A stretch of 64,000 nucleotides of DNA from Centroscyllium fabricii (Eukaryota): assembly GCA_051313645.2 (NCBI GenBank), contig JBNRSN020000005.1, positions 77,810,001 through 77,874,000 on the forward strand. Reading direction: 5' to 3'. A program made the position numbers and the translations under genes. Position 1 is the stretch's first letter; the number at the start of each line of letters is the position of its first letter. Under the pieces are notes generated by a model that did not search any database, was not told the origin of the DNA, and saw only the letters and a list, made by a program, of their open reading frames with translations. Positions 1,389-59,157 of this stretch are shown here, piece by piece.

Positions 1389-4300
1389 CGTCGGGGGCCC
1401 CGGTGTGTGTGCGTATGTAGGCCAGTAATCAGTGGATGTTGATCGATATGTAGGCCAGTGTTCGGTAGATGGTGGCTGGTCGGGCTGAGGCTCGACCAGA
1501 GGTTCTGCTCTAGAGCTCCCGGCGAGCGCTAGGTCTCTGATGGAAACTGTGTCCTCGCCGCCGTCCGGGAACTGCACGTAGGCATACTGCGGGTTGGCGA
1601 GCAGCAGCTGCACCTTTTCCACCAGGGGGTCGGTCTTATGGCCGCGGACATGTTTCCTAAGTAAGACCGGCCCCGGCGTCGTGAGCCACGGTGGGAGTGC
1701 TGTCCCCGAAGTCGACTTCCTGGGGAAGGAAAATAATAGGTCGTAAGGTGTAGCATTTGTAGCCGTGCACAGCAGAGAGTGAATGGAGTGGAGCGCGTCT
1801 GGGAGGACTGCCTGCCAACGGGACACTGGAAGGCCTCTGGACTTCAGGGCCAGGTTGACCGCCTTCCAGATGATCCCGTTCTCCCTTTCTACCTGGCCGT
1901 TCCCCCGGGGGTTGTAACTGGTCGTTCTGCTTGAGGCAACGCCTTTCTGAAGCAGAAACTGACGCAGTTCGTCGCTCATGAATGACGACCCCTGGTCGCT
2001 ATGGATGTAGCTGGGGAGACCGAAAATGGCAAACTGCATGGTGAAGTGTCTTATCACAGTTGCGCTCGTCATATCTGGGCAGGGGAAGGCGAAGGGGAAG
2101 CGGGAGAACTCGTCCACGACCGTGAGGAAGTACGAGTTGCGGTCGGTGGAAGGGAGGGGGCCTTTGAAGTCCACGCTCAGACGTTCAAAGGGGCGGGTGG
2201 CCTTGATGATGTACGCTGTGTCTGGCCTGTAAAATTGGAGTTTGCACTCGGTGCAGACAGTGCACTCTCGGGTCATAGCCTTGATCTCCGTGATGTAGTA
2301 GGGGAGGCTACGGGACGTAACGAAATGGGCGAGTCTGGTGACACCCGGGTGGCACAGGCTATCGTGGAGGGCCTTCAGCCGGTCCAGCTGGGCGCTGGCG
2401 CACGTTCCCCGGGACAATGCGTCCGGGGGTTCGTTGAGTTTGCCTGGGCGGTAAAGAATGTCGTACTCGTAAGTCGAGAGTTCGATCCGCCACCGCAGGA
2501 TCTTATCATTCTTGATTTTACCCTTTTATTTATTGTAAAACATAAACGCGACTGACCGTTGGTCGGTGAGCAGGATAAAATGCTTACCGGCCAGGTAATG
2601 ACGCCAGTAGCGCACTGCCTCCACGATGGCCTGGGCCTCCTTTTCCACTGCTGAGTGGCAAGTTTCGGGTCCCTGTAGGGTGCGGGAGAAAAACGCTACG
2701 GGCCTGCCCACCTGATTCAAGGTGGCGGCCAGGGCGAAGTCCGAAGCGTCACTCTCCACCTGGAAATGGATGGACTCATCAACGGCGTGCATGGTCGCCT
2801 TGATGATATCTTCCTTAATCAGGGCGAATGCCATTTGGGCTTCTACCGAGAAGGGGAAGACGTCAGCCTTGAGGAGCGGTCTGGCCTTATCCGCGAACTG
2901 GGGGACCCATTGTGCGTAATAGGAGAAAAATCCCAGACAAAATCCCAGACATCTCCTCAGGGCTTTGGGGTTGTGAGGAAGGGGCAGTTCCTGTAAGGGG
3001 CGCATACACTGTGGGTCAGGGCCGAGGACCCCGTTTTCCACCACGTATCCGAGGATTGCGAGCTGATCTGTACTAAAGATGCACTTGTCTTTATTGTATG
3101 TGAGATCGAGCCGTTTCGCCGTGTGGAGAAATTTTGCAAGGTTGGCATCGTGGTCCTGCTGGTCATGGCCGCAGATGGTCACGTTGTCCAGGTAGGGAAA
3201 GGTGGCCTGCAACCCGTTCTGGTCAACCATACGGTCCATCTCCCTTTGCAATACCGACACCCCGTTGGTCACGCCGAAGGGGACCCGGAGGAAGTGGTAG
3301 AGCCGACCGTTCGCCTCGAAGGCGGTGTACTGGCGGTCTGATTTCCTGATTGGGAGTTGGTGATACGCCGACTTAAGGTCGATTGTCGAAAAGACCGAAT
3401 ACTGGGCAATCTGGTTAACCATGCGGGGAAGCGGGTAGGCATCGAGACCGGTGTAGCGGTTAATTGTCTGTCTGTAATCGATCACCATCCGTAATTTCTC
3501 GCCAGTCTTAACCACTATGACCTGGGCCCGCCAGGGGTTGGTGCTGGCCTCAATTATCCCCTCCTGCAGCATACGCCCGACTTCTGACCTGATAAATGCC
3601 CGGTCCCCTGCACTGTAACGCCGACTCTTGGTAGCAATAGGTTTGCAGTTGGGGTCGAGGTTGGCGAACAGCGAGGGGGGGTTGACTTTCAGGGTGGATA
3701 GGCCGCAAGTCGGGCTCCGCTTCAGGAAGGGATTTTCCCGGCTACTGACGGTGAGGGGGGCCAGGGTCCCGCCGAACTCCATTGTCACGCTCTTCAGGTG
3801 GCACTGGAAATCCAGTCCCAGTAAGACTGGGACGAACAACTGCTGGAGTATGTACAGTTTAAAATTGCGGTACACGCAGTCCCTGACCGTGAGCGTGACG
3901 GAGCAGTAGCCGGTGACGTCCGCCGTGTGGGACTTTGAAGCAAGGGAGATTTGGTAGCGCATGGGCAGGGTCCGCAGTGCGTAGCGCTGCACTGTGTCAG
4001 GGTGGATGAAGCTCTCTGTGCTTCCGGTGTCGAACAGACAGTTGGTAACGTGACCGTCCACTTTAATCCCCATCATGGAATTTGATAGGGTGTGCGGCCT
4101 AGCCTGGTCGACAATGGCTGAGGCCGAAGTGTGTGTGTGTGTGTAGGGGCCCTCCGCTAGCTGGGGCCATGCACAAGATGGCGGCGCCCGTGGTTCGTAT
4201 GCAGCCAACCGCGGTGGACAAGATGGCGGTGCTGGGGGGTCGTACATGGCTGGCCGCGGGATACAAGATGGCGGCGCCATGGAGTCGCACGCAGCCGACC

Positions 4301-5558
4301 GCGGTGGACAAGATGGCGGCGCCGGGGAGTCGCTCATGGCTGGCCGCTGGGAACAAGATGGCGGTGCCGGGGAGTTGCACATGGCTGGCTGCTGGGGACA
4401 AGATGGCGGCGCCCGTGATTCGCACGCGGCGGACCGCGGTGGACGAGATGGCGGCGCCCGTGGTTCGCATGCGGTGGACCGCGGTGGACGAGGTGGCAGT
4501 GCCCGTGGTTCGCACGCAGCGGACCGCGCTGGGCGAGGTGGCGGTGCCCGTGGTTCGCACGCAGCGGACCGCGCTGGGCGAGGTGGCGGCTTTGGGGGGT
4601 CGCACATGGCTGGCCACGGCTGCCATTGGCATGGCGGTGCCCGTGCCGTGCGCGCGGCCGGCCTCTGCCGTGCAGGGATGGGAGACAGAGGCACCTGTGG
4701 TTTACCCCCGGACCGCTGCTGGGTCGCGCTGCAACAGCAGTTTACCTTAGGCCATGGGATGGCGTTGGAGCTCTCGCAGGCCGCGCTGTTGGATCTGGAG
4801 CTGGGCGCTGGGGCCGATTTGGAGGCCCTGGCGTAGTGTCCTTTCTTGCCGCATCTCTCGCAGGTCGCGCTCTTCGCGGGGCATTTCGCTCGCGGGTGTT
4901 GTCCCTGGCCGCAGAAGTAGCATCTACGCTCCGACGGCGTCTTCGCAGCTGCCGCTGCCATCGTGGGGTCCTCGACCTGTCGTGGGGCCGCCCAGGGATC
5001 GAGGGTATCGTGTGGGCCTTGGCCGCCATACGCCTCTAGTTTGCGGCGCGCTCCGTCCACTGCGTTGGAGATGGAGATCGCCTCCTCCAGTGATAGAGTG
5101 TCCTTTTCCAATAACCGCTGACGGGCCTGGTTGGACCTGATTCCTGCCACGTATGCGTCCCGTACGAGGAGATTCATCTCCTCCTGCGCCGTTCGTGGCT
5201 GGCAGTCACATGCCCGAGCGAGGGCTTGAAGCGCCAACAGATATTGTTCGTTCGACTCACCAAGCCGCTGTTGTCTGGTCGCCAGGACGTGTCTGGCATA
5301 GACCGAGTGGACCGGGCGCAAGTAGCATTCCTTCAGCTTCTTCACCGCCTCTGTGTACGTCGTGAGGCCGCGGATGAAGGAGTACACACGGCTACTGATT
5401 CTGGACGAGAGGACGTGTAGTTTGTCCCCGTCGCTCATCGCCTTTGCGGCCTCCATGTAGGCCTCGACAAGGCTGAACCAATGTTCAAAAGTGTTGGCGG
5501 CGGCTGGTTCCTGTGGATTGATATCCAATTTTTCGGGTTTCACAGCGCCACTCTCCAT
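1389..5558 (-). pseudogene. G1 gag-pol polyprotein with one in-frame stop at 2526-2528
   Basis: Zinc knuckles CYFCGQGQHPRAKC and CERCGKKGH; protease LFDTGS; RT VPFGV and YLDNV; RNase H ESDAS/EKE/TDQ; integrase HHCC and D,D,E. ORFs 2526..5558 and 1350..2417 are in the same frame, and the TAA sits where G3 has Gln. A 12-bp duplication gives CLGFCLGF. Confidence 0.93.
4174..4640 (-). repeat. 45-bp coding minisatellite (~10 copies, 15-aa Pro/Cys/Ala unit) between nucleocapsid and protease
   Basis: CAAGATGGCGG-like core recurs at 4174, 4219, 4264, 4309, 4354, 4399, 4444, 4489, 4534, 4579. Confidence 0.95.
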
Positions 5559-5580
5559 TTCAAAATTAAGTTATTAAAAT

Positions 5581-5872
5581 TGACGTATCGTCAATAATAC
5601 AAAGACGAGTAGTTACCTTAACTATAGGCTTTTAATAACTTAAAGATGGAGCTAGTCTCCAGTTGAACATCAGGTACAGAATGACTGGGGGCAGGGCGGA
5701 CCTCACCTATAAGGCTCCCACCTGAGGGGAGGAGTTAGAGGTGTGGCTGACCTGACCTTACAACCGTGTTCTACATCTCATACCTTCAATGCACCAAGCA
5801 ACTATATACATGGGTCATGTGGTGCAGTACAATTACAATCCAACTATATACAATGGTAATATGATTACCACA
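5581..5872 (-). repeat. 5' LTR of G1 (292 bp)
   Basis: Minus strand TGTGGTAA...GATACGTCA; TATA-like CTTATAGG, ATTAAA signal; central and 3' parts similar to the LTRs at 35581 and 37279. Confidence 0.92.
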
Positions 5873-14434: not shown

Positions 14435-14692
14435 TGTGGTAAACCACTGTATTACCACTGTACTGTATATACTGTGTGATAAGCTCACTGCATGTAACCT
14501 GTCTGGACATGCCCTCTGCTGGCCCCACCTGTGTCTCCTCCCCCGGACCCAGGTATAAAGGTGACTGTTCCCCAACCCCCCTTCAGTCTCGGACCAGTCA
14601 CTCAGCAGAAAGGCATGCTTCCTTCTTAGTGAATAGAAGCCTATCTGTTCTTCGCATAACTTCTAGTCTTTGGAGTTATTGATAGTGTATCA
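14435..14692 (+). mobile_element. Solo LTR of the same Gypsy lineage as G1-G3 (258 bp)
   Basis: TGTGGTAA...TATCA; TATAAA at ~14555; AATAGAAGCC...GTCTTTG...TTGATAGTGTATCA; flanks ACTAG/ATTAG (5-bp TSD, 1 mismatch). Confidence 0.85.
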
Positions 14693-26668: not shown

Positions 26669-27168
26669 CAAGTAAATCGCTGTTTCACCTGGAAGGAGTG
26701 TTTAGGGCCCTGGACAGTGGGAAGGGAGGAGGTAAAAGGGCAGGTGCTGCATCTCCTGCGCTTGCACAGGAAGGTGCTGGGCAAAGGTGAAGGGATGTTT
26801 TGGGTGATTGAGGAGTATTTTGAATACCATTCACAGTACATCAAGTTCATTATAGTTCAGCATGTAACAAAATAATGATACAGATCTCCAAAGACAACCT
26901 AGGCATTCATTTACTGCACATCGACACAATTGGATTTGAAGATTTACAAGTCTATTTCACTTTTTTTTTTACTCATTAAGGCCCTGTCACACCTTGACGT
27001 TTTAGCCAGCGTATGCAAATTTGGCTAAAACGCTGAACTTTCGACGTTTTTTTCAGTTCTGGCCGTATAATAGCGTATTCATAACGAGTTGGACGTATGC
27101 ATAACGTATTAGTAACGTACACAGAACGTATCGATAACTTTATACCAACTTATACCAACGAATGCTTA

Positions 27169-27732
27169 AGGCCCTGTCACACCTAGACGTTTTAGCCAGC
27201 ATATGCAAATTTGGCTAAAACGCTGGGTTACGTCGGATACGTTATGGGTACGTTATGCATACGTTAAGAGCACGCTGGCATACGCTGGCCATAAGTTGCA
27301 TACGTCGTTGTACTTCGAGTAAGTCGAGAAATTTTGAGCATGCACAAAATTTCTCCACGTATCTTGCGTATGATTCACACGTTCCGCATACGCTGGCCAT
27401 ACGTTGTAGGCACGTTAGGCGATCGTTGACACACGTCGACACACGTTACTTGTAAGTTATTCATAAGTCAAAAGACGTCGAGATAATTTCTAAGCGTACC
27501 CGGAACTTATTTCTAACCTATGAGTAACGTGCTTTGAACCTATGTGTAACGTATCTCCAACGCATATTTACGACCACAGAACTTACTGAACGTGTTTGCT
27601 ACCGTATAATACGTTATGCATATACGTCCAACTCGTTATGAATACGCTATTAAACGCCCAAAGTTCAGCGTAACCCAGCGTTTTAGCCAAATTTGCATAT
27701 GCTGGCTAAAACGTCTAGGTGTGACAGGGCCT
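27169..27732 (-). mobile_element. 564-bp MITE of the same family nested, inverted, in the parent element
   Basis: Perfect long TIRs AGGCCCTGTCACACCTAGACG...; body is the reverse complement of the parent's two ends; flanks TTA/TCA. Confidence 0.93.
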
Positions 27733-27972
27733 TCAGCGTGTTGTCGGCGTTCACAACTTATGCCCAACGATAGTCTAACTTATGCATAGCGCGCGGCAGC
27801 GTTTCGCCGACAATCACGTGGCGTAGCCTATTCAAAGGCTGTCATTGGACGATTAAAATCATACCACTAGACATCGAAGTGCAGCTCCACCCACCCAAAC
27901 TGATTCCAGTTCTACATCAAAATCTGCCTTGACAAGTCTGTTTTTTTGCCAAGTCTCTACAACATCACCATC

Positions 27973-29365
27973 ATGCCTAGGAAAAGTTCAAAGAATGCTG
28001 CCAGGAAGTCTCCTGGCCGTGGCCGTGGGCGCGGACGCATGGAGGATCCATCACCCACACCCTTCCCATCACGCTCACCCTCTGACGGAGAGGATGCTGG
28101 TTCCAACGCCTCTCGGGCATCGTCGGTGGCTGCGTCCGTGGCCTCCACCTCCTCTCAGCCAACCCTTGCGAAGAAGAGGGCCAAGAAGACACAGTTTTGT
28201 CTTTCTGTTGAAGAGGAGCAGCTGATGTGCGATTTCCTTTTCGAGAACGCCATCCTCTGGGACATTAAAAAGACAGACTACCGGAGGGTGGACAAGAAGG
28301 GAAAGCTCTGGGAGGATCAGGCAAAGGACATGGGGAAGACTGTGGAGCACCTTCAAGGGTGGTTCAAGTCCCTGCGAGACACCCACACCCGTCTCCACAA
28401 GAAGAAGAGCGGTGATGGCGCCCCGGAACTGACAGAGAGGGAGCAGTGGGTGAAGGCAAAGTTCGGCTTCCTCAGGACTGTGGTCCGCCATCGTGCTGAG
28501 CCCGTCCACAGTGTAAGTATAAACACATATTAATATCCATAATAATATTTATTTATATTAGTTTTACTGTACTTTGCCTCGTATTTTTGCATTGTATTTT
28601 ACTAATCAATTGTCATAATTGCAGGTAAAGGAAACCATTGCAGCACACAGCGGGGACCTCGAGGCTGGCGAGGCTGCCTGTGCAGAGATGGTGTTGGACA
28701 GCACACCCTCCCCTGTCCCCAGGGGGAAGCGTGGCCAGGACGATGACCAGCTGCAGTCACTCCAGAAGAGGGTGCACGAGTCTGGGGAGCTCCTCAAAAA
28801 TCTCGCACAGCCTCAGCCCATCACAACCACCTCAGCCTTCGCCAACTACGTGCGTGACAGCCTGGTCAGCATGTCCATGCGCAACTTCCGGAAGGCAAGG
28901 TTGCGCATCAACACCATCCTCACTGAGCTGATGGAGGAGGACACTGAGGAAGAAACCCCCATTTACGTGCGATCACCTTCAGCACCAGCTACCTACACCC
29001 CCACGGCATCGGCAATGTACCAGCAACATCCCCACAGGTGGAGACACACGGCACCGGCTGCGTCAGTCTGTGGACCGTACATGCAGCAGCCACAGTACCA
29101 GCAGATGATGCCACAGTACCAGCAGATGATGCCTCCTCCCCCTCAGCATGTGTTCCAACATCCTCCTCCTCTGATGATGCAGCAGCCAAGCCTCGCCTCT
29201 TCATCTGCTGCTATAGGCTCGGCTGGCCAGGTACTGAGCCATAGCCAAAGCACCTTCGACACTAGCGATATCTTCAATATCTCTGGATTCAACATTTCCA
29301 GCAGTCCTAATGCTGCAAGTAGCCCGCCTGGGGAGCTGAAGACACCTCCACCATCAGGGCACTGA
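27973..29365 (+). CDS. MADF (Myb/SANT-like) + BESS-like DNA-binding protein, 2 exons (27973-28512, 28625-29365), 426 aa
   Basis: MADF pattern LMCDFLFENAILWDIKKTDYRRVDKKGKLWEDQAKDMGKTVEHLQGWFKSLRDTHTR; BESS-like AFANYVRDSLVSMSMRNFRKARLRINTIL; phase-0 GTAAGT...ACTAAT...TTGCAG intron of 112 bp; AATAAA overlapping the stop. Confidence 0.9.
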
Positions 29366-29370
29366 ATAAA

Positions 29371-29540
29371 AGGTGACATTGTTTTTGCCATGTTTGTGCC
29401 ATTTTGTATATACGTTTGATTTTTCAGAGAAGGTGAGATTGTTTTTGCCATGTTTGTGCCATTTTGTATATACGTTTGATTTTTCAGAGAAGTTGAGATT
29501 GTTTTTGCCATGTTTGTGCCATTTTGTATATACGTTTTTA
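29371..29540 (+). repeat. 60-bp tandem repeat (~2.8 copies) in the MADF gene 3' UTR
   Basis: ATTGTTTTTGCCATGTTTGTGCCATTTTGTATATACGTTT repeated at 60-bp spacing. Confidence 0.95.
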
Positions 29541-30699
29541 GACCATTGTTATCATGTTTAATTATTTAATAAAAGTTGAGCAAACTCTTGATGTTTGTTG
29601 ATGTTATTGTTTTAATATTTAAATCATAAACAATAATTAACAATAATAAATTCATACACTTTGGAAAAGGTATAATAATATAATGTACATGTATATTGAA
29701 AAGTGGATAATTGAAAAAAAGGCTTTTTAATCAGGAGCTGTAAGTTCTGTGGTCGTCCGGAAGACGTCAAATACGTCAATATGCGTTGGAGATACGTTAC
29801 ACATAGGTTCAAAGCACGTTACTCATAGGTTAAAAATAAGTTCCGGGTACGCTAGACATTATCTCGACGTATTTTGACTTATGACTAACTTACTAGTAAC
29901 GTGTGTCGACGTGTGTGAACGATCGCCTAACGTGCTTACAACGTATGGCCAGCGTATGCGGAATGTGTGAATCATACGCAGGATACGTCGAGATTTTTTG
30001 TGCATGCTCAAAAATTCTCGACTTACTCGAAGTACAACGACGTATGCAACTTATGGCCAGCGTATGCCAGCGTGCTCTTAACGTATACAAAACGTACCCA
30101 TAACGTATCCGACGTAAACCAGCGTTTTAGCCAAATTTACATACGCTGGCTAAAACGTCAAGGTGTGACAGCCCCTTTAGATTTTGATAAATCTGTTAAG
30201 TCTAGTAATAACGAGACATCAAATACACAGTAACTTCTGCTTAGTCCAGTAAACATTACTGCTGGCGCCTTTTGTCTTTCATAATACCTTGGGGTGAAAT
30301 TCCTTCCATTAATAATTTTATTGAAATCGCCACCTTCAGTATGCAATTTCATACTTTGTACTCATGCCAACTTTTTCAGTACAATTATTGACAGGAGGAA
30401 TTTCACATACACCTTTCTTCTGGAATTTGAACATAAAAATAAGGGTACAACAATACTGACTTGAATAGTAGACAGTGTGGATATGCTGGTGAGATTTGAT
30501 AGGAAGATATAATCACAATAAATGGTACATTGGTCTGGACTGCCAATAGTGATAATCTAAAATGCCCTGAAAATGCCCTTAAAACAAGTTTCCCAAACAG
30601 CTCTACAATAACAAACTAACTTTTTAAACGTTTTATTTTTGTTCTGTGCTGTGTGGCCCAGTTGCACTGGAACCTGTAGGCCTTCATCTGAGAAAGATT

Positions 30700-35580: not shown

Positions 35581-37578
35581 TGTGGTAACCGTTATATGTA
35601 CTCTTTTACCACCATAATATTGTTGCCCAATATTAATCTGTATGTATAGCGGCCGGGTGCATGATACACTGCTTTGTATTGCGACACTGTCGCGGGGTCA
35701 GGTCAGCCACATCTCTAACTCCTCCCCTCAGGTGAGTGCCTTATAGGTGGGGTCTGACCTGCCCCCATCCATTCTGTACCTGATGTTCGATCGGAGCGTA
35801 GCTCCTTTGTAAGCTAATAAAAGCCTTTAGTTGAGGTAACTACGTGTCTTTGGTTTTATTAGACTATTGACGATACGTCCTGCGGTGGCGGATCGAGCTC
35901 TCGACTTACGCATACGACATTCTTTACCGACCAGGCAAACTCAATGAACCCCCGGACGCATTGTCCAGGGGAACGTGCGCCAGTGCCCAGCTAGACCGGC
36001 TGAAGGAACTCCATGATCGCCTCTGCCACCCGGGTATCACCAGACTCGCCCACTTCGTTAAATCCCGTAGCCTCCCCTACTCCATCACGGAGATCAAGGC
36101 TATGACCCAAGAGTGCCCTGTTTGCGCCGAGTGCAAACCCCAATTTTACAGGCCAGACACGGCGCACCTCATCAAGGCCACCCCCCCATTTGAACGTCTA
36201 AGCGTGGACTTCAAAGGCCCCCTCCGCTCCACCGACCGCAACTCGTACTTCCTCATGGTCGTAGACGAGTTCTCCCGCTTCCCTTTCGCCTTCCCCTGCC
36301 CAGATATGACGAACGCAACGGTGATCAAACACTTCACCACGCTGTTCGCCATTTTCGGTCTCCCCAGCTACATCCATAGCAACTGGGGATCGTCGTTCAT
36401 GAGCGACGAACTGCGTCAGTTTCTGCTTCAGAAAGGGATTGCCTCAAGCAGAACGACCAGTTACAACCCCCGGGGGAACGGCCAGGTAGAAAGGGAGAAC
36501 TGGATCATCTGGAAGGCGGTCAGCCTGGCCCTGAAGTCCAGAGGCCTTCCAGTGTCCCGTTGGCAGGCAGTCCTCCCAGATGCACTGCACTCGATCCGCT
36601 CTCTGTTGTGTACGGCTACCAACGCCACAGCTCACGATTTGCTCTTTTCCTTCCCCAGGAAGTCGACTTCGGGGACAGCCCTTCCACCATGGCTCACGAT
36701 GCCGGGGCCGGTCTTGCTTAGGAAGCATGTTCGTGGCCATAAGACTGACCCCCTGGTAGACAAGGTGCAGCTGCTGCATGCCAACCCGCAGTACGCGTAC
36801 GTTCAGTTCCCGGACGGGCGCGAGGACACCGTCTCCATCAGGGACCTAGCGCCCGCCGGGAGCACCACAGCAGAGCCCCTGGTCGAGCCTCAGCCCGTCC
36901 ACCCACTACATTTCGACCACTGGCTGATACACCATCCACAACCCACCGGAGGCTGGCCATTTCAAACATACACATCGGAGCCCCCGTCACTGCCAGCTGA
37001 GGACCAGGAACCGGACGACGAGCCGCAGGCACAGCAGCAACCGGAGGGCCCGGCCCCACCGCCACTACCAGCACCTACGGTACCGGCACCAGCGCCGCCG
37101 CCACTACCGGCACCAGCGCCGCCGACACTACCGACACCAGCGCCGCCGACACTGCAGACACCAGAGCCGCTGACAGAGACCCGGTGGTCCTCCAGACAGA
37201 CGCGACCGCCGGAGAAACTCATCATGAACTGTTCTGTCCATTCACCCCGCCGGACTTAATTTTCAAAGAAGGGGTGAATGTGGTAACCGTTATATGTACT
37301 TTTTTACCACCATAATATTGTTGCCCAATATTAATCTGTATGTATAGCGGCCGGGTGCATGATACACTGCTTTGTATTGCGACACTGTCGCGGGGTCAGG
37401 TCAGCCACACCTCTAACTCCTCCCCTCAGGTGAATGCCTTATAGGTGGGGTCTGACTTGCCCCCATCCATTCTGTACCTGATGTTCGATCGGAGCGTAGC
37501 TCCTTTGTAAGCTAATAAAAGCCTTTAGTTGAGGTAACTACGCGTCTTTGGTTTTATTAGACTATTGACGATACGTCA
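35581..37578 (+). mobile_element. Internally deleted Gypsy element G2: LTR-integrase-PPT-LTR (1998 bp)
   Basis: LTRs 35581-35879 and 37279-37578 (~5 substitutions in 300 bp); TSD CCTGT; PPT AAAGAAGGGG at ~37265; the 5' LTR joins directly to LRWRIELS at the end of RNase H. Confidence 0.96.
35961..37259 (+). CDS. G2 integrase open frame (HHCC zinc finger, catalytic core, Pro-rich tail); no native start codon
   Basis: H..LCHPG...C..C; VDFKG; HSNWG (second catalytic Asp changed to Asn; G1 has HSDQG); GQVERE. Confidence 0.8.
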   Translation: MSRGTCASAQLDRLKELHDRLCHPGITRLAHFVKSRSLPYSITEIKAMTQECPVCAECKPQFYRPDTAHLIKATPPFERLSVDFKGPLRSTDRNSYFLMVVDEFSRFPFAFPCPDMTNATVIKHFTTLFAIFGLPSYIHSNWGSSFMSDELRQFLLQKGIASSRTTSYNPRGNGQVERENWIIWKAVSLALKSRGLPVSRWQAVLPDALHSIRSLLCTATNATAHDLLFSFPRKSTSGTALPPWLTMPGPVLLRKHVRGHKTDPLVDKVQLLHANPQYAYVQFPDGREDTVSIRDLAPAGSTTAEPLVEPQPVHPLHFDHWLIHHPQPTGGWPFQTYTSEPPSLPAEDQEPDDEPQAQQQPEGPAPPPLPAPTVPAPAPPPLPAPAPPTLPTPAPPTLQTPEPLTETRWSSRQTRPPEKLIMNCSVHSPRRT

Positions 37579-38822
37579 CCTGTCTTTCTATTTTTACCAC
37601 CAAAGTGGATAACCTCACATTTATCCACATTGTACTTCATCTGCCATACATTTGCCCATTCACCTAACCTGTCCAAGTCAATCTGTAGCCTCTTAGCATC
37701 CTCCTCGCAGCTCACACTGCCTCCCAATTTAGTGTCATCCGCAAATTTGGAGATACAACATTTAATCCCTTCGTCCAAATCATTAATATATAATGTAAAC
37801 AGCTGGGGCCCCAGCACCGAACCTTGCGGTACCCCGCTGGTCACTGCCTGCCATTCTGAAAACTGCCCATTTACTCCTACTCTTTGTTTCCTGTGTGCCA
37901 ACCAGTTCTCAATCCACATCAACACATTACCCCCAATCCCATATGCTTTAACTTTGCACACCAATCTCTTGTGTGGGACCTTGTCGAAAGTCTTCTGAAA
38001 GTTCAAGTACACCACATCCACTGGTTCTCCCCTGTCCATTCTACTGGAAACATCCTCAAAAAATTCCAGAAGATTTGTCAAGCATGATTTTCCTTTCGCA
38101 AATCCATGCTGACTTGGACCTATCATGTCACCACTTTCCAAATGGTCTGCTATGACATCCTTAATAATTGATTCCATCATTTTACCCACTACCGATGTCA
38201 AGCTGACCGGTCTGTAATTCCCTGTTTTCTCCCTCCCTCCTTTTAAAAAAAGTGGGGTTACATTAGCCACCCTCCACTCCATCGGAACTGATCCAGTCTA
38301 TGGAATGTTGGAAAATGATCGTCAATGCATCCATTATTTCCAAGGCCACTTCTTTAAGTACTCTGGGATGCAGACCATCAGGCCCTAGGGATTTATCAGC
38401 CTTCAGTCCCATCAATTTTCCCAACACATTTTCCCGACTAATAAGGATTTCCCTCAGCTCCTCCTTTTTACTAGACCCAATGACCCCATTTATGTCCGGA
38501 AGGTTGTTTGTGTCCTCATTAGTAAATACCAAACCAAAGTACTTGTTCAATTGATCTGCCATTTCTTTGTTCCCCATTATGACTTCCCCTGATTCTGACT
38601 GCAGGGGACCTACGTTTGTTTTTACTAACCTCTTTCTCTTTACATATCTATAGAAGCTTTTGCAGTCAGTTTTAATATTCTCTGCAAGCTTCCTTTCATA
38701 TTCTATTTTCCCTGTCTTAATCAAACCCTTCATCCTCCTCTGCTGAGTTTTAAATGTCTCCCAGTCCCCGGGTTTGCTGCTACTTCTGGCCAATTTGTCT
38801 GCCTCTTCCTTGGCTTTAATAC

Positions 38823-41800
38823 TGAGATGCCTCAAATCAAAGACGGCAGCGAGTTCTTAAATAAGTGGCTTTTATTCACAAGGAACTGAACCGTGTCCCC
38901 GATGAGCCTGCCTGGAATGAGAGATAAGTGGGCGGAGCATTCTCCTTTATACTAGTACCCAGAGGCGGGGTCAGCCGGAACAGGTCCTTACAGAAATGTA
39001 GAGATATTAACAGATATATAACAAACACATTAAACAAAACTATATACAATAACCGTACAGTGTGATCCACACCAAAAGGTTCATCACATTCACACCTTCC
39101 TTAAAAAGAAGTCCAGCGGGGCGAATATCAGCACTGTGTTATTAGTCTTTGTGGAGGTTTAACAGTCCGATCAGATCGGCGAGGCAGTGTCGGTTCTGGT
39201 GAAGAAGCGGGAGTAGTCGTAATCGGAAAAGACGCTGACGGGGCTCCCGACGTGAACAGAGACTCCACCGGTGGAAGAGGTACCTCAGGCACAGGAAGAT
39301 CTGGTGGAGGTGTAGCAGCCGCCAAAAGAGTAGGCTGAGCAACATGATGAGCTCCGTCGTGCATCGGAAGTGATGAGGGCCCCGATGTAATGTGCGCAGG
39401 TGAATGAAAAGACGGCCCCTGCTGTGAAAATGTGACCTGGGAGGGCAAGGGCTCCGCCAACGACTCAAGAGTGAACGTCTCCAGCGGGCGCAAGGTCTCT
39501 AATCGAGACGGTATCCTCACGCCCGTCTGGGTACGCCACGTAGGCATACTGAGGGTTGGCATGCAGCAAGCGCACACGTTCGACAAGAGGGTCCGTCTTG
39601 TGTCCACGGACATGCCTTCTAAGCAAAACCAGCCCCGGGTTGGTAAGCCACGTCGGCAGAGACGTCCCCAAAGTTGATTTCCTAGGGAAAGAGAAGAGTT
39701 TCTCGTGAGGTGCGCAACCGGTGGCTGTGCACAAGAAGGAGCGGGTAGCGTGGAGCGCATCCTGGAGGACCTCCTGCCAATGAGAGGTTGGAAGGCCTTT
39801 GGATCGAAGGGCCAGGGTGATGGCCTTCCAGATGGTCCCATTATAACGTTCTACCTGACCGTTCCCCCGGGGGTTGTAACTGGTCGTTCTGCTCGAGGCA
39901 GCCCCCCTCACGAGCAGAAAATGACGCAGTTCGTCACTCATAAATGAGGACCCCGGTCGCTGTGTATGAAGCCGGGAAGGCCGAAAATGGCGAATAGCAT
40001 GATAAAATGCTTTATCACTGTTGCACTCGTCATATCTGGGCATGGGAATGCAAAAGGGAAACGGGAGAACTCGTCGACCACAGTGAGAATGTACGAGTTA
40101 CGGTTGGTAGAGGGGAGGGGACCTTTGAAGTCCACACTCAGGCACTCGAATGGGCGGGTGGCCTTGATGAGGTGCGCCCTGTCAGGCCTGTAAAACTGGG
40201 GCTTGCACTCAGCACAGACAGGGCACTCCTGCGTCATCGCCTTGATCTCCGCAATGGAATAAGGGAGATTGCGTGATTTGACGAAGTGAGCGAGCCTGGT
40301 GACCCCCGGGTGGCAGAGATTAGCGTGGAGGGTGTTCAGACTACCCGACTGGGCGCTGGCACACGTTCCTCAGGACAGGGCGTCCGGGGGATCGTAAAGC
40401 TTCCCTGGCCAGTACAGAATGTCGTACTCAAAAGCGGAGAGTTCGATCCGCCACCTGAGGATCTTGTCATTCTTGATTTTACCCCTCTGTTTATGGTGGA
40501 ACATAAACGCTACTGACCGCTGGTCAGTAAGAAGGGTAAATCGTTTACCGCCCAAATAGTGGCGCCAGTGGCGCACTGCTTCCACGATTGCTTGGGCCTC
40601 CTTTTCCACTGAAGAGTGGCGGACTTCAGGGCCCTGCAGGGTACGGGAGAAGAAAGCGACGGGCCTGCCTGCCTGGTTAAGGGTGGCGGCCAGGGCGAAG
40701 TCTGAGGCGCCGCTTTCGACGTGGAAGGGGAGAGACTCATCAATGGCGTGCATGGTTGCCTTGATGATGTCTTGCTTGATATGCGAAAAAGCAATTTGGG
40801 CCTCTAACGGGAGCGGGAAGGAGGTAGCCCTGAGTAGAGGCCGGGCCTTATCAGCATAATGGGGAACCCATTGTGCATAGTAAGAGAAAAAACCCAGGCA
40901 TCTCCTCAAAGCTTTGGGGGAGTGCGGTAGGGGCAGCTCCTGAAGGGGGTGCATACGTTCGGGGTCGGGGCCGAGGACCCCGTTCTCAACCACGTAGCCG
41001 AGGATAGCCGAGGATAGTGTTGAAAACGCACTTATCCTCATTGTAAGTGAGGTTCAGACGCTGGGCCGTACGGAGAAACCTGTCCAAATTGGCATCATGA
41101 TCTTGCTGGTCATGGCCGCAGATCGTGACATTGTCCAAATACGGGAATGTGGCCTGCAAATCATACTGGTCAACCATTCGGTCCATCTCTCGTTGGAAGA
41201 CCGAAACTCTGTTGGTAACTCCAAAGGGGACCCGGAGGAAGTGAAAAAGGCGCCCATTTGCCTCGAAGGCAGTGTATTTACGGTCCTCAGCTCTGATGGG
41301 GAGCTGGTGATAGACTGACTTAAGGTCGATGGTGGAGAAGACCTTATACTGGGCAATCTGATTGACCATGTCATTGATTCTAGGAAGCGGATAAGCGTCG
41401 AGCCCAGTGTAGCGGTTAATAGTCTGGTTATAGTCGATGACCATGCGCTGTTTGTCGCCAGACTTAACCACCACCACCTGGACCCGCCACGGGCTGTTAC
41501 TGGCCTCGATGATGCCCTCCCGCAACAACCGAGCAACCTCTGCCTTCATAAAGGTGCGGTCCCCCGCGCTGTATCGCCGACTCTTGGTTGCAATGGGCTT
41601 GCAGTCAGGGTCAAGGTTGACGAACAGCGAGGGGGGTCTATCTTCAAGGTAGACAGACCGCAAGGGGAGTGTGGTTGTAAGGCAGGGCAGTCGCGGCTGC
41701 TGACCGTGAGAGGAGGCAGGGGACCGCCGTATGCCATCGTCATGCTCTGCAGATTGCACTGGAAGTCCAGGCCAAGCAACACAGGGGCGCAGAGCTGTGG

Positions 41801-43860
41801 GAGGACGTACAGTTGAAAGTTGCGGTATGTCGTCCCCTTCACGGTAATAGTGACTGTACAGCAGCCGATGACGTCCACAGTCTGGGACTCGGAGGCGAGG
41901 GAGATTTTACGATGTGTGGGCTTAACCCTGAGGGAATAACGGCGCACCGTATCAGGGTGTATGAAGCTCTCCGTACTCCCAGTGTCGAACAGTCATCGGG
42001 TGAGGTGCCCCTTTACCCGGATGGGCATCATCGATGATATGAGAGACTGGTTGAGGGCTGTAGAGGCAAGTGTGGTGTGCGCGCTAGGGCCCTTGTGCAA
42101 TGCAGGGTTCGCGAGCGATGGCGGCTCCCGTGATTCGCACGCGGCGGGCCACGGTGGTGTTTCGGGCCGTTGGGAGGACCGCTAGGTGGGTCGCTGAGAA
42201 AGCCGTTGGGAGGACCGAAGGGCTCGTGGCGCGCAAGCACCAGAATGCTGAATTGCCCTGGAGTTGCCTGTTGCTGCTGCCAGGATCATTGGAATTTCTC
42301 CAGGGCTGCCTGTTGCTGCTGCTGCCTGCATCGGTAAGCTTGCCTTAAACAAAGATGGCCGCGCCCTGGGCTGGGGCGGGGCTGCTGCTGCCAGGAGGCG
42401 AATTGCCCGCATCCAAGATGGCGGTGTCATGTGACGGGGCGGGGCCGCTGCTGCCAGGATGCGAGTTGACCGCATCAAAGATGGCGGCGCCCTGTGCTGG
42501 GATGCTGCCGCTGCTGCCAGGATACCCGACGGCGCCCGCGTTTCACGCCGATTCAGCGAGGAAGAAGGTGCCCGCGCCCCCAAAGATGGCGGAGTGCGGG
42601 AAACGAGCGAGGAAGAAGATGCCCGCGCCCCCAAAGATGGCGGAGTGCGGGAAACAACGTTGGCAGGCCGCATCTGAGGCAAGGTAGGTGGCAATCATTC
42701 AGAGGGCCGCTGTTGGGGGGCGCTAGGTACCTGAGGCAACTCTGTGGCGTGGACATCGCAGGCTGCTGCCATTTTCCGTGCTGATTCCGGGGCTGATCGG
42801 CAGACCTTCGCAAAATGGCCCTTCTTGCCAATTTGGAGCAGGAAAATGCCTTCGCTGGGCTGGAGCTTCGTGGATGGTGTTTCTGGCCGCAAAAAAAACA
42901 TTTCGGAGGCGCTGGCTGTCCAGATGGTGCCGTGGCCGCCACGGTCGCCGTCGAGGGCGTCGAACACGAGTCCCAAGGCCCAGGGGAAACCGTGTGGGAG
43001 CCGTGCCCCGTGTACGAATCTAGGCTCCGGAGGGCCCCATCCACCGCGTTGGAAAGCTTCAGCGCCTCATTTAGGGATAAATTACCCTGCTCGAGCAGAC
43101 GGGTGTGGGCTGGGGCCGATCTGATGCCTGCCACGTAGGCATCGCAGACAAGGAGGTCCATGTGCTCCTGGGCGTTAACAGGGGCGCATCCGCAGCATTG
43201 AAGAGCCTCCAGGTACTCCTCTTTCGACTCACCATGCTGTTGCCGCCACGTGCCGAGTAGATGGCGAGCATAGACTGCGTTGACTGGCTGGAGATATCGA
43301 GCCTTCAGTAGCTCCATCGCTGCATCGTATTCCGTGGCGCTCTTAATTATGGAATACACTCTGCCACTCACGCAGGAGACCAGGACTCTTCTCTTGTGCG
43401 CGTCGCCGACTCCGGCCACGACAAGGTACGACTCGAAGCAGCTCAGCCAATGTTCAAAAACTTTCAACGCGTTCAGTGCCTGGGGGTTGAGGTCGAGAGT
43501 TTTTGGTTTTAGAACTGTCTTCCAACTCTCAGATGTTGCTGGCTGTTGATCTTCATTCTGCTGGCTCATTTTAAAAATCCTTGTGAATAAAATTGAGATG
43601 CCTCAAATCAAAGACGGCAGCGAGTTCTTAAATAAGTGGCTTTTATTCACAAGGAACTGAACCGTGTCCCCGATGAGCCTGCCTGGAATGAGAGATAAGT
43701 GGGTGGAGCATTCTCCTTTATACTAGTACCCAGAGGCGGGGTCAGCCGGTACAGGTCCTTACAGAAAAGGTACAGATATTAACAGATATATAACAAACAC
43801 ATTAAACAAAACTATATACAATAACCGTACAGTGTGAACCACACCAAAAGGTTCATCACA
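38823..43860 (-). mobile_element. Full-length but frameshifted Gypsy element G3
   Basis: LTRs 38823-39088 and 43594-43860; TSD AATAC; PPT at 39089-39105; gag ATG 43569; PR FDTGS, RT YLDNV, RNase H and INT in shifted frames. Confidence 0.96.
39128..43569 (-). pseudogene. G3 gag-pol, multiple frameshifts
   Basis: ORF pieces 42553..43569, 42182..42694, 41546..41947, 40986..41759, 40370..41041, 39938..40237, 39465..40043 and 39128..39841 tile the G1 polyprotein. Confidence 0.93.
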
Positions 43861-44244
43861 AATACTATCCCTGATTTCCCTTGTTCGCCTTGGTTGAGCC
43901 ACCTTCCCTTTTTTATTTTTACGCCAGACAGGGATGTACAATTGTTGCAGTTCATCCATGTGATCTCTAAATGTCTGCCATTGCCCATCCACTGACAACC
44001 CCTTAAATATCGTTTGCCAATCTAACCTAGCCAATTCACGCCTCATGCCTTCAAAGTTGCCCTTATTTAAGTTTTGGACCAAGGTCTCTGAATTAGCTGT
44101 TTCCTTCTCCATCCTAATGTAGAACTCCACCATACTATGGTCACTCTTCCCCAAGGGGCCTCGCACCACAAGATTGCTAATTAGTCCTCCCTCATTACAC
44201 AACACCCAGTCCAGGATGGCCTCCCCTCTAGTTGGTTCCTGAAC

Positions 44245-48420: not shown

Positions 48421-49422
48421 TGTGTCTCACAATGAGGTTATATTGTTTGTACCACGAGTAAACAGTTGATAACTAGGCACTGCAGTCAAGGCATCGGACA
48501 ACATCTTGAATAATGCTCTGCCGTGCAAAAGTTTTATAAATGTCAGTGCCTGTTTTGTGCCGTGTGTACTGTATTTCACTGTTGCATATGGGGCCGTGGT
48601 TGAAAACACCAGTGAAGAACCACACAAACATAGTAGGAATTTAGAGTTTTTAATTTTTCTGGCAACAAAGCTCTGGCCTATTTTAGGCCCAGGACAGGAT
48701 CACCTCCCCTTTCCAGACCCGACAGCCGGACGACTTTTCATCATGGGTCTTATTTCAGAATTCCATAAAGAACAAAGAAGGCTGTTTTCTCCCAGCACTG
48801 AGATATGAACAGTTTTAGTTTGAAGTTAACCTGTGTAATGGGGCAAATTATCCAGTCAGAGCAGGAGAGGAAAAGGAATGACATCAGCTTAATCTTTTCC
48901 ACATTTTCATTAATAACATGAAAACTGAGTCCTGTCATTAAAAAATGTGGAAGGTGTATTTAACTAATAATTTATTAATTGTATTAATTAGAGTCAATTT
49001 ACAAATTCAAATTGTGTTCGATTAAAATTAGACCTTTCTCTCCAGCTCTAAAATTTGTAACACAGCGGCTAATTTTTTCAAGTGATAGTGAAAGTTGTCG
49101 TTACAGATAGCAGACAGGATTTTCCATTGCCCATTAATTGGGGCACTTCCCCTGCCTGCCATGGAGATGTGCCCTTGCATTTTGATCAAATTTCCAGCCT
49201 TGAGATCATTTGTATTTTGAAGGCAGGCTCCCAGCCTGTGTGCTGCCTGCAACAATGACAATTTTTACAAAGAAAAAAAGACTTGCATTTACATAGCGCC
49301 TTTCATGACCACCGGATGTCTCAAAGCACTTTACAGCCAATGAAGTACTTTTTTTTCTGATTCCGCATTGGCCTGTGCCAGGCAACGGGCCTGAAGTTCG
49401 GTACCTGAGTGTCGGTTGTTAA

Positions 49423-49984
49423 AGGCCCTGTCACACCTAGACGTTTTAGCCAGCATATGCAAATTTGGCTAAAACGCTGGGTTACGCTGAACTTTGGGCG
49501 TTTAATAGCGTATTCATAACGAGTTGGACGTATGCATAACGTATTATACGGTAGCAAACACGTTCAGTAAGTTCTGTGGTCGTAAATATGCGTTGGAGAT
49601 ACGTTACACATAGGTTCAAAGCACGTTACTCATAGGTTAGAAATAAGTTCCGGGTACGCTTAGAAATTATCTCGACGTCTTTTGACTTATGAATAACTTA
49701 CAAGTAACGTGTGTCGACGTGTGTCAACGATCGCCTAACGTGCCTACAACGTATGGCCAGCGTATGCGGAACGTGTGAATCATACGCAAAATACGTGGAG
49801 AAATTTTGTGCATGCTCAAAATTTCTCGACTTACTCGAAGTACAACGACGTATGCAACTTATGGCCAGCGTATGCCAGCGTGCTCTTAACGTATGCATAA
49901 CGTACCCATAACGTATCCGACGTAACCCAGCGTTTTAGCCAAATTTGCATATGCTGGCTAAAACGTCTAGGTGTGACAGGGCCT
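49423..49984 (+). mobile_element. 562-bp MITE, near-identical inverted copy of 27169-27732, inside an older GGGCC-ended element (~49387-50616)
   Basis: Same TIRs; by eye one substitution and one 2-bp indel versus 27169-27732; flanks TAA/TCA. Confidence 0.95.
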
Positions 49985-50699
49985 TCAAGCCAGATTCATG
50001 GAAGAAATGGCGTCCACCTCGCTTCCCGCGCTGGACGCCATATTGGTGAGGGCAAGTAAAAGAGGTGTTGCTTACCTTTGTCTGAAACACGCATTGGGCT
50101 TTTAACATATTCAAATAAGGGGCCTAATGCCTGCTTCTACTACCTCTTACAAATTTGGCTTGCATCTGAGGCAGCCAGCACCAATGCTGACTGCCTCTGG
50201 GAAAACAAACGCTAAACAGCAGTGAATTAAAAAAAGTTAAGTATTTACAATTATCATCTCCAACCTTACCCCCGACTTCGGCCTCCAGGCCCTCTCCGAT
50301 CTTCCCCTAATTTTGAATCCACCTTCCAGACCTTCCCCCAATGCTGGCCCCGACCTCCCCAGGATCTTGGCCCTGACCCAACCTCCCACCCGATCCTAGC
50401 CCCGACCTACCTCCAAATCCTTGCCCCGACCCTCCTCCCGATGCTGACCCTCACCTCCAGGCCCACCCCCGAGTCCTTGCTCGATGTTCAGCACTGGGCT
50501 GAATGCCACAATAATGCTGATCAGCAGGCAGCACCAAAATAACGCTGCTGTCTGTGATCTTTTTACGGGCACGATCAAATCCTGCCCCCCCAGTGGCACC
50601 GCTTGTTTTTGGGCCTTATGGAATTTCTAAGCCAGCATTTCTTACGCTCTTGAGCAGGCCTGGCTACCAAAAGAAAAACTTCTTCAGCTCCTCCCCCAA

Positions 50700-53351: not shown

Positions 53352-53619
53352 GAAGTGAAGAGATGCATATAGGCACAGCATATATAGTCCGAGCACTGCC
53401 AGATGATTACAGGTAATCTTTCTAACTGCCCTTTATCACACCTCAGCAAAGAGATAATCACAGCAATCAGAGGTGTGAATGGTGTCCAAACAGGTCAGTC
53501 AGGAAAACATTACATCAAAGAACAATGAGGTGGGGGTCACAAGGTGACCCCCACCTCATTGTTCTTTGATGTAATGTTTTCCTGACTGACCTGTTTGGAC
53601 ACCATTCACACCTCTGATT

Positions 53620-56165: not shown

Positions 56166-57469
56166 AATTCTTCCTCATCTCTGTCCTCAATGGCCTACCC
56201 CTTATCCTTAGACTGTGCCCCCTGGTTCTGGACTCTCCGACCATCGGGAACATTCTTCCTGCATCTAGTTTGTCCAGACCTGTCGGAATTTTATAAGTTT
56301 CGATGAGATCTCCTCTCATTCTTCTAAATTCTAAATTACAGTGAGTATAAGCCTAATCGACCCAACCTCTCCTCATACGTTATTCCTGCCATCCCAATTC
56401 AATTCAATTCAATTCAAGTTTTATTGTCATTGCAGAGTACTAGTACAATACAACGAGACGAAGACTCGACGCTCCCGAGAGTAGTGCAAATAAATTACAT
56501 GCAAATTGCATACAGTAAAGTACATTATCAGGCGTGCAGGTACCGGAGTTTATTTTTAGAATTCAGCAGGCTGACAGCCCTGGGGAAGAAGCTGTTCTTA
56601 AATCTAGTCGTGCGGGTGCAAATTGATCTGTAGCGTCTCCTGGAGGGCAGGGGGGTGAACAGACTGTGGCTGGGGTGTGTGGGGTCTTTAATAATATTCG
56701 GAGACCTCCATAAGCAGCGTTTGAGGTAGATGCTTTCCATTGACGGTAGCTGGGGACCGGTGATTCGTTGGGCAGTTTTGACTACCCGCTGCAGGGTTTT
56801 CCAGTCTGAGATAGTGCAATTTCCATACCAGACTGTGATGCAGCTTGTCAGTATGCTTTCTATTGTGCAGCGGTAGAAGTTGGAGAGGATGCCGGATGAC
56901 AGCCTGGCTTTCTTCAGCTTCCTTAGGAAGTACAGGCGCTGTTGGGCCTTCTTAACCAGAGAGGAGGTGTTTAGTGACCAGGAGAGATCTTCCGAGATGT
57001 GGACCCCGAGGAACATGAAGCTGGACACCCTTTCCACCTCAGCCCCTTGGATGAAGATGGGGGTGTGTCTTCTGCTTCCAGTCCTCCGGAGGTCCACTAT
57101 GATCTCCTTAGTTTTCTTGGTGTTCAGTGCCAGGTTGTTGTCGGCACACCATCCCACAAGGCGCTGGATCTCATCCCTGTAGGCTGACTCGTCGTTATTG
57201 GTGATCTGGCCAACCACCGTGGTGTCATCCGCAAACTTGATGATCGTGTTGGAGCCATGGACAGCCGCACAGTCGTGAGTGAAGAGGGAGTAGAGGAGTG
57301 GGCTCAGCACACAACCTTGTGGGGCCCCCATGTTCAGGGTAAGTGGGGTGGGAGGTGAGGTTGCCTAACTTCACAGACTGTGGTCTGTTGGTTAGGAAGT
57401 CCAGGGTCCAGTTGCAGAGGGAGGTGTTCAGGCCGAGGGTGAGGAGTTTGTTAGACAATTTGCTCGGGA

Positions 57470-58670
57470 CGAGCGTGAGAGTGAGGAGTGGGAATCAGAG
57501 GTTGAGAGTGTGAGAGTGTGAGGAATGGGAATCAGAGTGTGAGAGTGTCAGAGTGAGGAATGGGAATCAGAGTGTGAGAGTGTGAGAGTGTGGAATGGGA
57601 ATCAGGGCGTGAGAGTGTGAGAGTGAGGAATGGGAATCAGAGCGTGAGAGTGTGAGAGTGAGGAATGGGAATCAGAGCGTGAGAGTGAGGAATGGGAATC
57701 AGAGCGTGAGAGTGTGAGAGTGAGGAATGGGAATCAGAGCATGAGAGTGTGAGAGAGTGGAATGGGAATCAGAGCGCGGCGTGTGAGAGTGAGGAATGGG
57801 AATCAGAGCGCGGTGTGAGAGTGAGGAATGGGAATCAGAGCGCGGTGTGAGAGTGAGGAATGGGAATCAGAGTGCGGTGTGTGAGAGTGAGGAATGGGAA
57901 TCAGAGCGTGAGAGTGTGAGAGTGAGGAATGGGAATGAGAGCGTGAGAGTGAGAGTGAGGAATGGGAATCAGAGCGTGAGAGTGTGAGAGTGAGGAATGG
58001 GAATCAGAGCGTGAGAGTGAGGAATGGGAATCAGAGCGTGAGAGTGTGAGAGTGAGGAATGGGAATCAGAGCGCGGTGTGAGAGTGAGGAATGGGAATTA
58101 GAGCGCGGTGTGAGAGTGAGGAATGGGAATCAGAGTGCGGTGTGTGAGAGTGAGGAATGGGAATCAGAGCGTGAGAGTGAGGAATGGGAATCAGAGCGTG
58201 AGAGTGTGAGAGTGAGGAATGGGAATCAGAGCGCGGTGTGAGAGTGAGGAATGGGAATTAGAGCGCGGTGTGAGAGTGAGGAATGGGAATCAGAGTGCGG
58301 TGTGTGAGAGTGAGGAATGGGAATCAGAGCGTGAGAGTTTGAGAGTGAGGAATGGGAATGAGAGCGTGAGAGTGTGAGAGTGAGGAATGGGAATCAGAGC
58401 GTGAGAGTGTGAGAGTGAGGAATGGGAATCACAGCGTGAGTGTGTGAGAGAGTGAGGAATGGGAATGAGAGCGTGAGAGTGTGAGAGAGTGAGGAATGGG
58501 AATGAGAGCGTGAGTGTGTGAGAGAGTGAGGAATGGGAATGAGAGCGTGAGAGTGTGAGAGTGAGGAATGGGAATCAGAGCGTGAGAGTGTGAGAGTGAG
58601 GAATGGGAATCAGAGCGTGAGAGTGTGAGAGTGAGGAATGGGAATCAGAGCGTGAGAGTGTGAGAGTGAG
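57470..58670 (+). repeat. Purine-rich minisatellite, ~27-37 bp unit GAGTGAGGAATGGGAATCAGAGCGTGAGAGTGTGA
   Basis: More than 30 tandem copies with variable GA/GT spacer. Confidence 0.97.
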
Positions 58671-59157
58671 GTTGAACAACCACCAAAAACTCCCATACCT
58701 ATTGGGGGAACAGAGGGACTGTATAAAACTGGCGGCAAAATACGTCACAGCTTGCCATAAGCAGAGGGACAACCAGTGACCATTGAAGCTAGGAAGAGCA
58801 TACAAGCTCTATATGCGGGTATATATGTATGTGTGTGCGTAGCTATTCATTCAATACGTCTGGTTATGCATTTGTATGTCCAATTGTATATGTTCTTTTT
58901 AGATCTATCTGCGGGTTTTTATGTGTATGTGTATGCATAGTTATTCATTCAATACGTCTGGTTATGCATTTGTATGTCCAACTGTATTAGATCTATATGC
59001 GGGTTTTTATGTGTATGTGTATGCATAGTTATTCATTCAATACGTCTAGTTATGCATTTGTATGTCCAACTGTATATGTTCTTTTTTGTGCTTTGGCAAC
59101 ATAGGATGTATCTTGTCATGCCAATAAAGCAATTTGAATTGAATTGAATTGAATTGA
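58671..59157 (+). mobile_element. 3' end of another non-LTR element (RTE-X-like) with a triplicated 3' UTR segment and (TTGAA)n tail
   Basis: C-terminus KLPYLLGEQRDCIKLAAKYVTACHKQR*; three ~90-100 bp repeats at 58810-59075; CAATAAAGC then (TTGAA)n. Clade name from recall only. Confidence 0.6.

Follow-up and report, generated by a model that had tools for sequence, protein, structure and literature searches.

A leader-complementary LTR segment carrying the poly(A) signal, a candidate self-primer in an animal Gypsy lineage

The leader of an animal lineage of Gypsy LTR retrotransposons begins with bases complementary to a segment of its own LTR that carries the poly(A) hexamer. This arrangement is a real lineage-wide feature and is probably a variant of self-priming with a new layout. 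A priming role of the duplex is likely, and an internal primer and re-templating of the primer site are inferred from its position and its pattern of change. The conserved duplex is 13 bp long. It was found in the window, a stretch of 64,000 nucleotides of Centroscyllium fabricii DNA, in the families G1 and G3, and it was traced through the genome for G2 and for a fourth family that has a solo LTR in the window.

The elements of the window and their leader/LTR duplex

G3 is a minus-strand Gypsy LTR retrotransposon whose gag and pol frames are broken in the window copy. Its 5' LTR (267 bp, TG...CA, 43594..43860, minus strand) agrees with the 3' LTR (266 bp, 38823..39088, minus strand) at 261 of 266 aligned bases, and a 5-bp target-site duplication (43861-43865 and 38818-38822) flanks the element. 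The gag start (42553..43569, frame broken downstream), the pol pieces with RT, RNase H and the integrase region (39128..41906, Pfam RVT_1 and RT_RNaseH) and the polypurine tract adjoining the 3' LTR (39089..39100) all lie on the minus strand. Proline-rich tandem repeats occur between Gag and protease, with a unit of 45 nt in G1 (4083-4659) and of about 60 nt in G3 (42550-42660).

In the G3 5' LTR, a putative TATA box (43717..43722) is followed by a putative initiator TCATTC (43686..43691), at which the RNA would start at 43689. Further downstream lies the LTR segment that is the candidate self-primer (43641..43655, conserved core 43641-43653), with the poly(A) hexamer AATAAA (43647-43642) inside it, and the candidate primer would be cut between 43641 and 43640. 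The remaining 47 nt of R and U5 (43594..43640) would serve as the entire template of minus-strand strong-stop DNA. The leader of 24 nt (43570..43593) has no tRNA-type TGG site, and its bases 2-16 (43578..43592, core 43580-43592), at the position of a primer-binding site, are complementary to the LTR segment. Leader base 1 takes part in a short hairpin at the U5 end (43593..43606); all of these features are on the minus strand. In the best predicted fold of G3, GCC is paired with the U5 end rather than in the short hairpin. The 3' LTR carries the same poly(A) segment, without a leader partner downstream.

On recomputation, 43578-43592 and 43641-43655 are exact reverse complements, so that the perfect 15-bp inverted repeat with a 48-nt spacer of the original prediction stands, as does its 24-nt leader (43593-43570) running up to the ATG at 43569-43567. 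The 50-nt spacer that it gave for G1 was also found, in a 14-bp duplex (5566-5579/5630-5643; 5' LTR 5581-5872, minus strand), and in either family the first paired base of the leader is base 2. The LTRs of G1 and G3 are indeed largely unalignable, with a longest shared local match of at most 13 nt. G3 had further been described as an independent co-varying version of the G1 duplex. The covariation holds, but the independence does not, because the two pol regions are 77% identical over 2.5 kb; these are related families rather than independent origins, and the covariation lies inside one lineage. The junction was present in all 30 top G3 loci, 25 of them with 15/15 pairs, which indicates that the duplex is not due to chance. 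The 15 bp of G3 are the conserved 13 plus two extra pairs.

G2 (35581..37578, plus strand) has two LTRs that are 98% identical and is internally deleted, with leader and gag lost, and the fourth family is represented by the solo LTR at 14435..14692 (plus strand). Their leaders had been predicted from the LTRs before any was seen. For G2, 13/13 pairs were found in nine of the ten gag-followed junctions among 30 loci, and the tenth has two changes. For the solo-LTR family, 11 of the 13 gag-followed junctions (30 loci) have at least 13/13 pairs and two have one mismatch, but the last two predicted bases failed, so the duplex is 13 bp long in that family. The hexamer variant of the window solo LTR and the leader L087 were not linked by any junction found. 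A canonical TGG primer-binding site, the outcome named beforehand as contrary, was found in none of the G3, G2 and solo-LTR junction sets, which were unselected on the leader.

Conservation of the duplex in the genome and in other hosts

The junction motif has 243,085 matches in the 7.2-Gb genome, versus 98 for the control. The search pattern fixes only the ends of the junction, with positions 1-5 set and 6-20 free, and the last four bases of the hexamer are fixed by the pattern. From the first 100 matches listed, 93 junctions were examined, 92 of which are distinct and 89 of which are followed by gag-like sequence. TGG is absent from the first 8 leader bases of the 93, a sample selected on the first bases of the leader, and the leader is 17-27 nt long in 90 of them. 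At the free positions 6-13, Watson-Crick pairs occur in 91, 91, 83, 90, 88, 90, 89 and 89 of the 92 junctions, and at positions 14-16 in 37, 27 and 26, versus 27, 32 and 35 after shuffling. The duplex therefore has a sharp edge between positions 13 (89/92) and 14 (37/92; shuffle mean 27, maximum 40).

Perfect 13-mers are present in 71 of the 92 junctions and comprise 26 different sequences. Positions 6-13 were perfect in 77% of the comparisons with the copy's own leader and in 4% of those with another copy's leader. G.U pairs fill 8 of the 736 cells at positions 6-13, and seven of the eight are C>T-like changes of the leader. The hexamer is either AATAAA (62 junctions) or ATTAAA (30 junctions), and the leader matches it in 91 of 92. 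Mismatches are commonest at position 8, the most polymorphic position (9/92). The helix was predicted with a median pair probability of 0.93 over the 92 junctions, and the fold of the G3 5' RNA has z = -2.65. Rfam gave no match. Hairpins at the U5 end, with stems of 4-6 bp, were found in 67 of 89 junctions in a few covarying types, and other subgroups are without the hairpin.

Two further regularities were seen in the junctions. Position 11 of the duplex is A in 89/92 and position 10 is G in 85/92, beyond what pairing or the hexamer needs, and these bases are possibly a cleavage or binding signal. Predicted folds of G1, G3 and some other junctions carry the pairing, with bulges, over the gag start codon (G3 43563-43569 with 43669-43679; G1 5553-5558 with 5646-5651), and this predicted pairing could couple translation to priming.

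Homologues of Gag and RT were found in sharks, rays, corals, an anemone, a sea slug, flatworms, spiders, crustaceans and a tunicate; the G1 Gag query gave homologues in sharks, rays, spiders, crustaceans, a nematode and a tunicate. Six of the nine loci from genome bins (L182-L186 and L189, four families) have the junction, and in 6/6 the duplex starts from leader base 2 and ends on the hexamer, with lengths of 13, 14, 10 (decayed), 14, 14 and 14 bp. L187, L188 and L190 are without a gag-start junction and were left out of this count. All nine loci are probably animal contamination, and the bins of the six are bacterial. L182 (1-4023) and L183 (1-3949) were assembled as circles with one LTR, and could be one-LTR circles or collapsed repeats. 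A second AATAAA occurs in the U5 of L184-L186, about 10 nt downstream of the paired hexamer. Viral contigs gave no match with single-protein or Gag queries and one distant locus with the RT alignment, and the ESM Atlas held unnamed Gag clusters only.

The RT active site reads YLDN in place of YxDD in G3 (about 41141) and in G1 (ORF 2526-5570). Among the homologues P0001-P0120, xxDN was found in 82 of 120 and xxDD in 24, and 14 were not parsed. The copies are young and abundant, which suggests that the YLDN enzyme worked. No mention of a YLDN RT was found in the literature searched.

A possible priming mechanism and its alternatives

Self-priming of some form seems highly probable from the arrangement of these bases, and we lean slightly toward the full model, an internal primer with copying into the primer site. 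In the full model, the RNA would begin at the initiator, which lies about 52 nt upstream from the end of the duplex, and a 13-nt stretch of R that ends in A(A/T)TAAAA, and whose pairing is seen as covariation, is predicted to fold onto leader bases 2-14. The RNA would be cut directly after the A run, probably by the RNase H of the element as in Tf1, and the new 3' end would prime minus-strand DNA through leader base 1 and U5. With its 3' A paired to leader base 2, the segment has the placement and the polarity expected of a minus-strand primer. What remains of R, between the cut and the poly(A) site, would act in strand transfer. In plus-strand synthesis, RT would copy roughly 13 nt of the primer while this is still attached, and RNase H would then free it; the primer site would thus be rewritten from the LTR segment and would track every LTR change. 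In the 5' LTR alone, the same duplex would also hide the poly(A) hexamer, which is a likely second function. Each of the 26 element-specific 13-mers agrees with its own LTR, so the primer cannot be one single host RNA. Among relatives with a solved structure, Ty3 RT is the closest (best PDB hit). According to an excerpt of PMC11363490, the polymerase site and the cut are 11-12 nt apart in Ty3 RT and 10-14 nt apart in CaMV RT, and the duplex edge at 13 lies near this spacing, which suggests that about 13 nt of the primer are copied in plus-strand synthesis. We found no precedent for a capped primer of 50 nt.

The start of the RNA is placed by two conserved elements. The 92 junctions gave 86 hits of TATA-like words that begin between -80 and -86, counted from the duplex end, and an initiator TCAKTY is present at -65 to -40 in 64/92, with a TATA-to-initiator spacing of 29-33 nt. 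The same pair is present in G1, G3 and the solo LTR, and it would place the paired segment about 39 nt inside R. It was not evident at the same distance in the six outside relatives with a junction.

The between-subfamily changes bear on how the pairing is kept. A gag tree of 89 copies requires at least 46 paired changes at positions 6-13, of which at least 24 are of transversion type and have no G.U intermediate. Position 8 changed 15 times on this tree, versus 7 times for gag columns in the median and 14 times at their 90th percentile, and the U5 hairpin pairs in the same rows show 3 changes and one change only. From a position-12 variant class with 899 copies, 30 were examined; 27 of them are compensated, and 0 of 29 T-variants keep the old leader base. 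The 8 closest position-12 variant copies are 95.7% identical in gag to 10 wild-type copies, and the wild-type copies are 95.2% identical among themselves.

Rare variants within subfamilies gave a different picture. At position 11 in one subfamily group (6273 wild type, 114 leader-only and 54 LTR variants), 1 of the 50 LTR variants examined was compensated, with about 0.3 expected. The leader-only variants are twice as many as the LTR-only ones (about 53) in the same context, with A-T transversions dominating, and the two kinds are equal at position 8. There, 25 of the 50 hits lie within the main U5 types, and 0 of these 25 LTR variants is compensated, versus 26 leader-only variants; the other 25 hits are sister lineages. 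Such variants probably arose by mutation after insertion and argue neither for nor against copying, as neither model would compensate damage of this kind. L150/L191, considered as a freshly copied transversion, was dropped in view of the genome-wide position-11 count. The original prediction had offered selection or copying as the alternatives, and this was the right pair: the between-subfamily data favour copying, the rare within-subfamily variants do not discriminate, and double changes could likewise be fixed by strong selection, given a very large population of elements.

The duplex might only hide the 5' poly(A) signal and be kept by compensatory selection, with another primer in use. It covers a hexamer that alternates solely between AATAAA and ATTAAA, the helix is strongly predicted throughout the sample (median pair probability 0.93, 92 junctions), and there is no excess of compensated rare variants. 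Masking as the sole function is nevertheless unlikely, because it accounts neither for the absence of a tRNA site nor for pairing from leader base 2 on, the edge at 13 bp, the scarcity of G.U pairs that became fixed and the many transversion swaps, and a second primer would find no space in a leader of 24 nt. An inverted repeat without function, which template switching in replication would keep perfect, is very improbable. Template switching perfects near-palindromes and would give strict Watson-Crick pairs, but the 26 variants and the distant hosts have a fixed register, length and position in common, and the element would be left without a primer; the fixed register largely refutes this explanation.

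Other alternatives keep the segment as the primer. In Tf1, the primer is the transcript's first 11 bases (excerpt of PMC7175516). With a plain arrangement of this type, the RNA here would start at the 13-mer, the primer would be its 5' end, and the upstream TATA and initiator would be unused or mark an alternative start. A start at the 13-mer would account directly for the sharp 13-bp edge, and alternative start sites are reportedly a published theme for Tf elements. We consider it unlikely, because TATA and initiator, about 39 nt further upstream, have kept their canonical spacing in families with unalignable LTRs, no TATA lies 30 nt upstream of the 13-mer, and base 13 is T, an unusual transcription start base, in 77/92. 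It is still less likely that the segment acts after trimming from the 3' R of the transcript or from a second packaged RNA. The segment is present at both RNA ends, and lineage mixing would place most mismatches at the most polymorphic position, as is seen at position 8 (9/92). The 5' copy, however, is located in cis at a distance of about 50 nt and should be the first to pair according to the predicted folds, and the position-8 mismatches are symmetric in one subfamily group (25 LTR-only versus 26 leader-only).

The internal-primer model is extended tentatively to a broader proposal: a widespread animal Gypsy lineage outside the chromoviruses may use an internal, capped 50-nt primer from its own RNA that ends in the poly(A) signal. 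One 13-bp helix would both block premature polyadenylation and start reverse transcription by an RT with a YxDN active site, and the primer site would be re-templated from the LTR in each cycle, with both sides drifting at near-neutral speed.

Relation to known elements and other features of the window

The lineage has the Ty3/gypsy domain order of protease, RT, RNase H and integrase (Pfam; G1 ORFs 2526-5570 and 1350-2525, RT/RNase H pieces in G3), together with a TG...CA LTR pair, a target-site duplication and a polypurine tract. As in the Tf1/sushi group, it has no tRNA site and an LTR segment complementary to the leader start. No chromodomain was found after the integrase at E<=1 in G2 35871-37256, a frame that reaches near the polypurine tract, in G1 1353-2525 or in G3 39131-39850.

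For Tf1, self-priming is proven, and a few clades are assumed to use it as well, in each instance with the first bases of the RNA. Tf1/Tf2 and the Tf1/sushi chromoviruses (also Tj1, Tosmo and Tcn1) resemble the present lineage in lacking a tRNA site, in having an LTR segment complementary to the sequence after the 5' LTR and flanking U5 pairings, and in needing a cut for a free 3' end (excerpts of PMC7175516, PMC4600332 and 10.1101/2022.12.06.519325). This cut is made by Tf1 RNase H between bases 11 and 12 (PMC7175516, in part), and self-primers are placed at transcript 5' ends in an excerpt of PMC5006619. The duplex here differs in that it has 13 bp, would lie about 39 nt after the start and holds the poly(A) hexamer, and no chromodomain was detected. 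The lineage was not placed in the Tf1/sushi group because no chromodomain was found and because the primer seems to be internal, has 13 nt and contains the poly(A) signal. The predicted self-primers of plant TAR copia elements and Tcn1 follow a survey rule that also fits the lineage here, at least 10 bp complementary to the LTR located 0-5 bp after the LTR, but these elements belong to another superfamily or clade and another kingdom, and the excerpt of that survey does not mention an overlap with the poly(A) signal (PMC6317226).

The lineage resembles Mag-type Gypsy elements in having two CCHC knuckles in Gag, a single long ORF, short LTRs and a 5-bp duplication. The two zinc knuckles are present in the G1 translation and at alignment columns C213-H241. 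A profile of the lineage's Gag matches the putatively Mag-like L181 at E 2.6e-38. L181 is a distant relative (27% RT identity) with an ordinary TGG primer site and a YxDD-type RT (LMDD), whereas the present lineage has an LTR-complementary leader and mostly YxDN. The tRNA primer site that belongs to the Mag clade is absent here. In retroviruses, poly(A) hairpins mask the 5' signal, and copying from the tRNA into the primer-binding site rewrites that site in plus-strand synthesis; the primer there is a host tRNA, whereas in the present lineage one set of bases would be both primer and poly(A) signal. The CsRn1 clade is characterized by a tRNA-Trp site, a CHCC Gag motif and a 4-bp duplication (excerpt of PMC2582038), and membership was rejected on the lack of TGG, the CCHC motifs and the 5-bp duplication. 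A weak Pfam match on Gag (E 0.2) was taken as chance. The layout was not found described in the literature searched; Repbase reports lie outside that search, so a prior mention is possible. The excerpts of PMC3601003, PMC6934838, PMC10886601, PMC3587641 and PMC7599744 contain no description of it.

If the model is true, tRNA-free priming occurs in another Gypsy branch, in a layout of another kind that combines poly(A) control with priming, at a scale of about 243,000 junctions in one vertebrate genome and with relatives in several animal phyla. In this case, apparent compensatory evolution would arise from copying and not from selection, which matters for reading covariation in retroelement RNA. 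Host 3'-tRNA fragments would be unable to silence the elements via the primer site, and this is a possible, speculative reason for the abundance.

The window also contains an element at 27164-30180 with inverted ends of 400-570 bp around a MADF/Myb-SANT ORF (27904-28533) and a further ORF (28619-29365), which is presumably a Harbinger-type DNA transposon. A near-identical copy of its end is located at 49422-49990. A perfect 76-bp palindrome with a 3-nt loop occupies 53465-53619, and a G-rich minisatellite with a 35-nt unit and a strong GC skew extends from 57442 to 58706.
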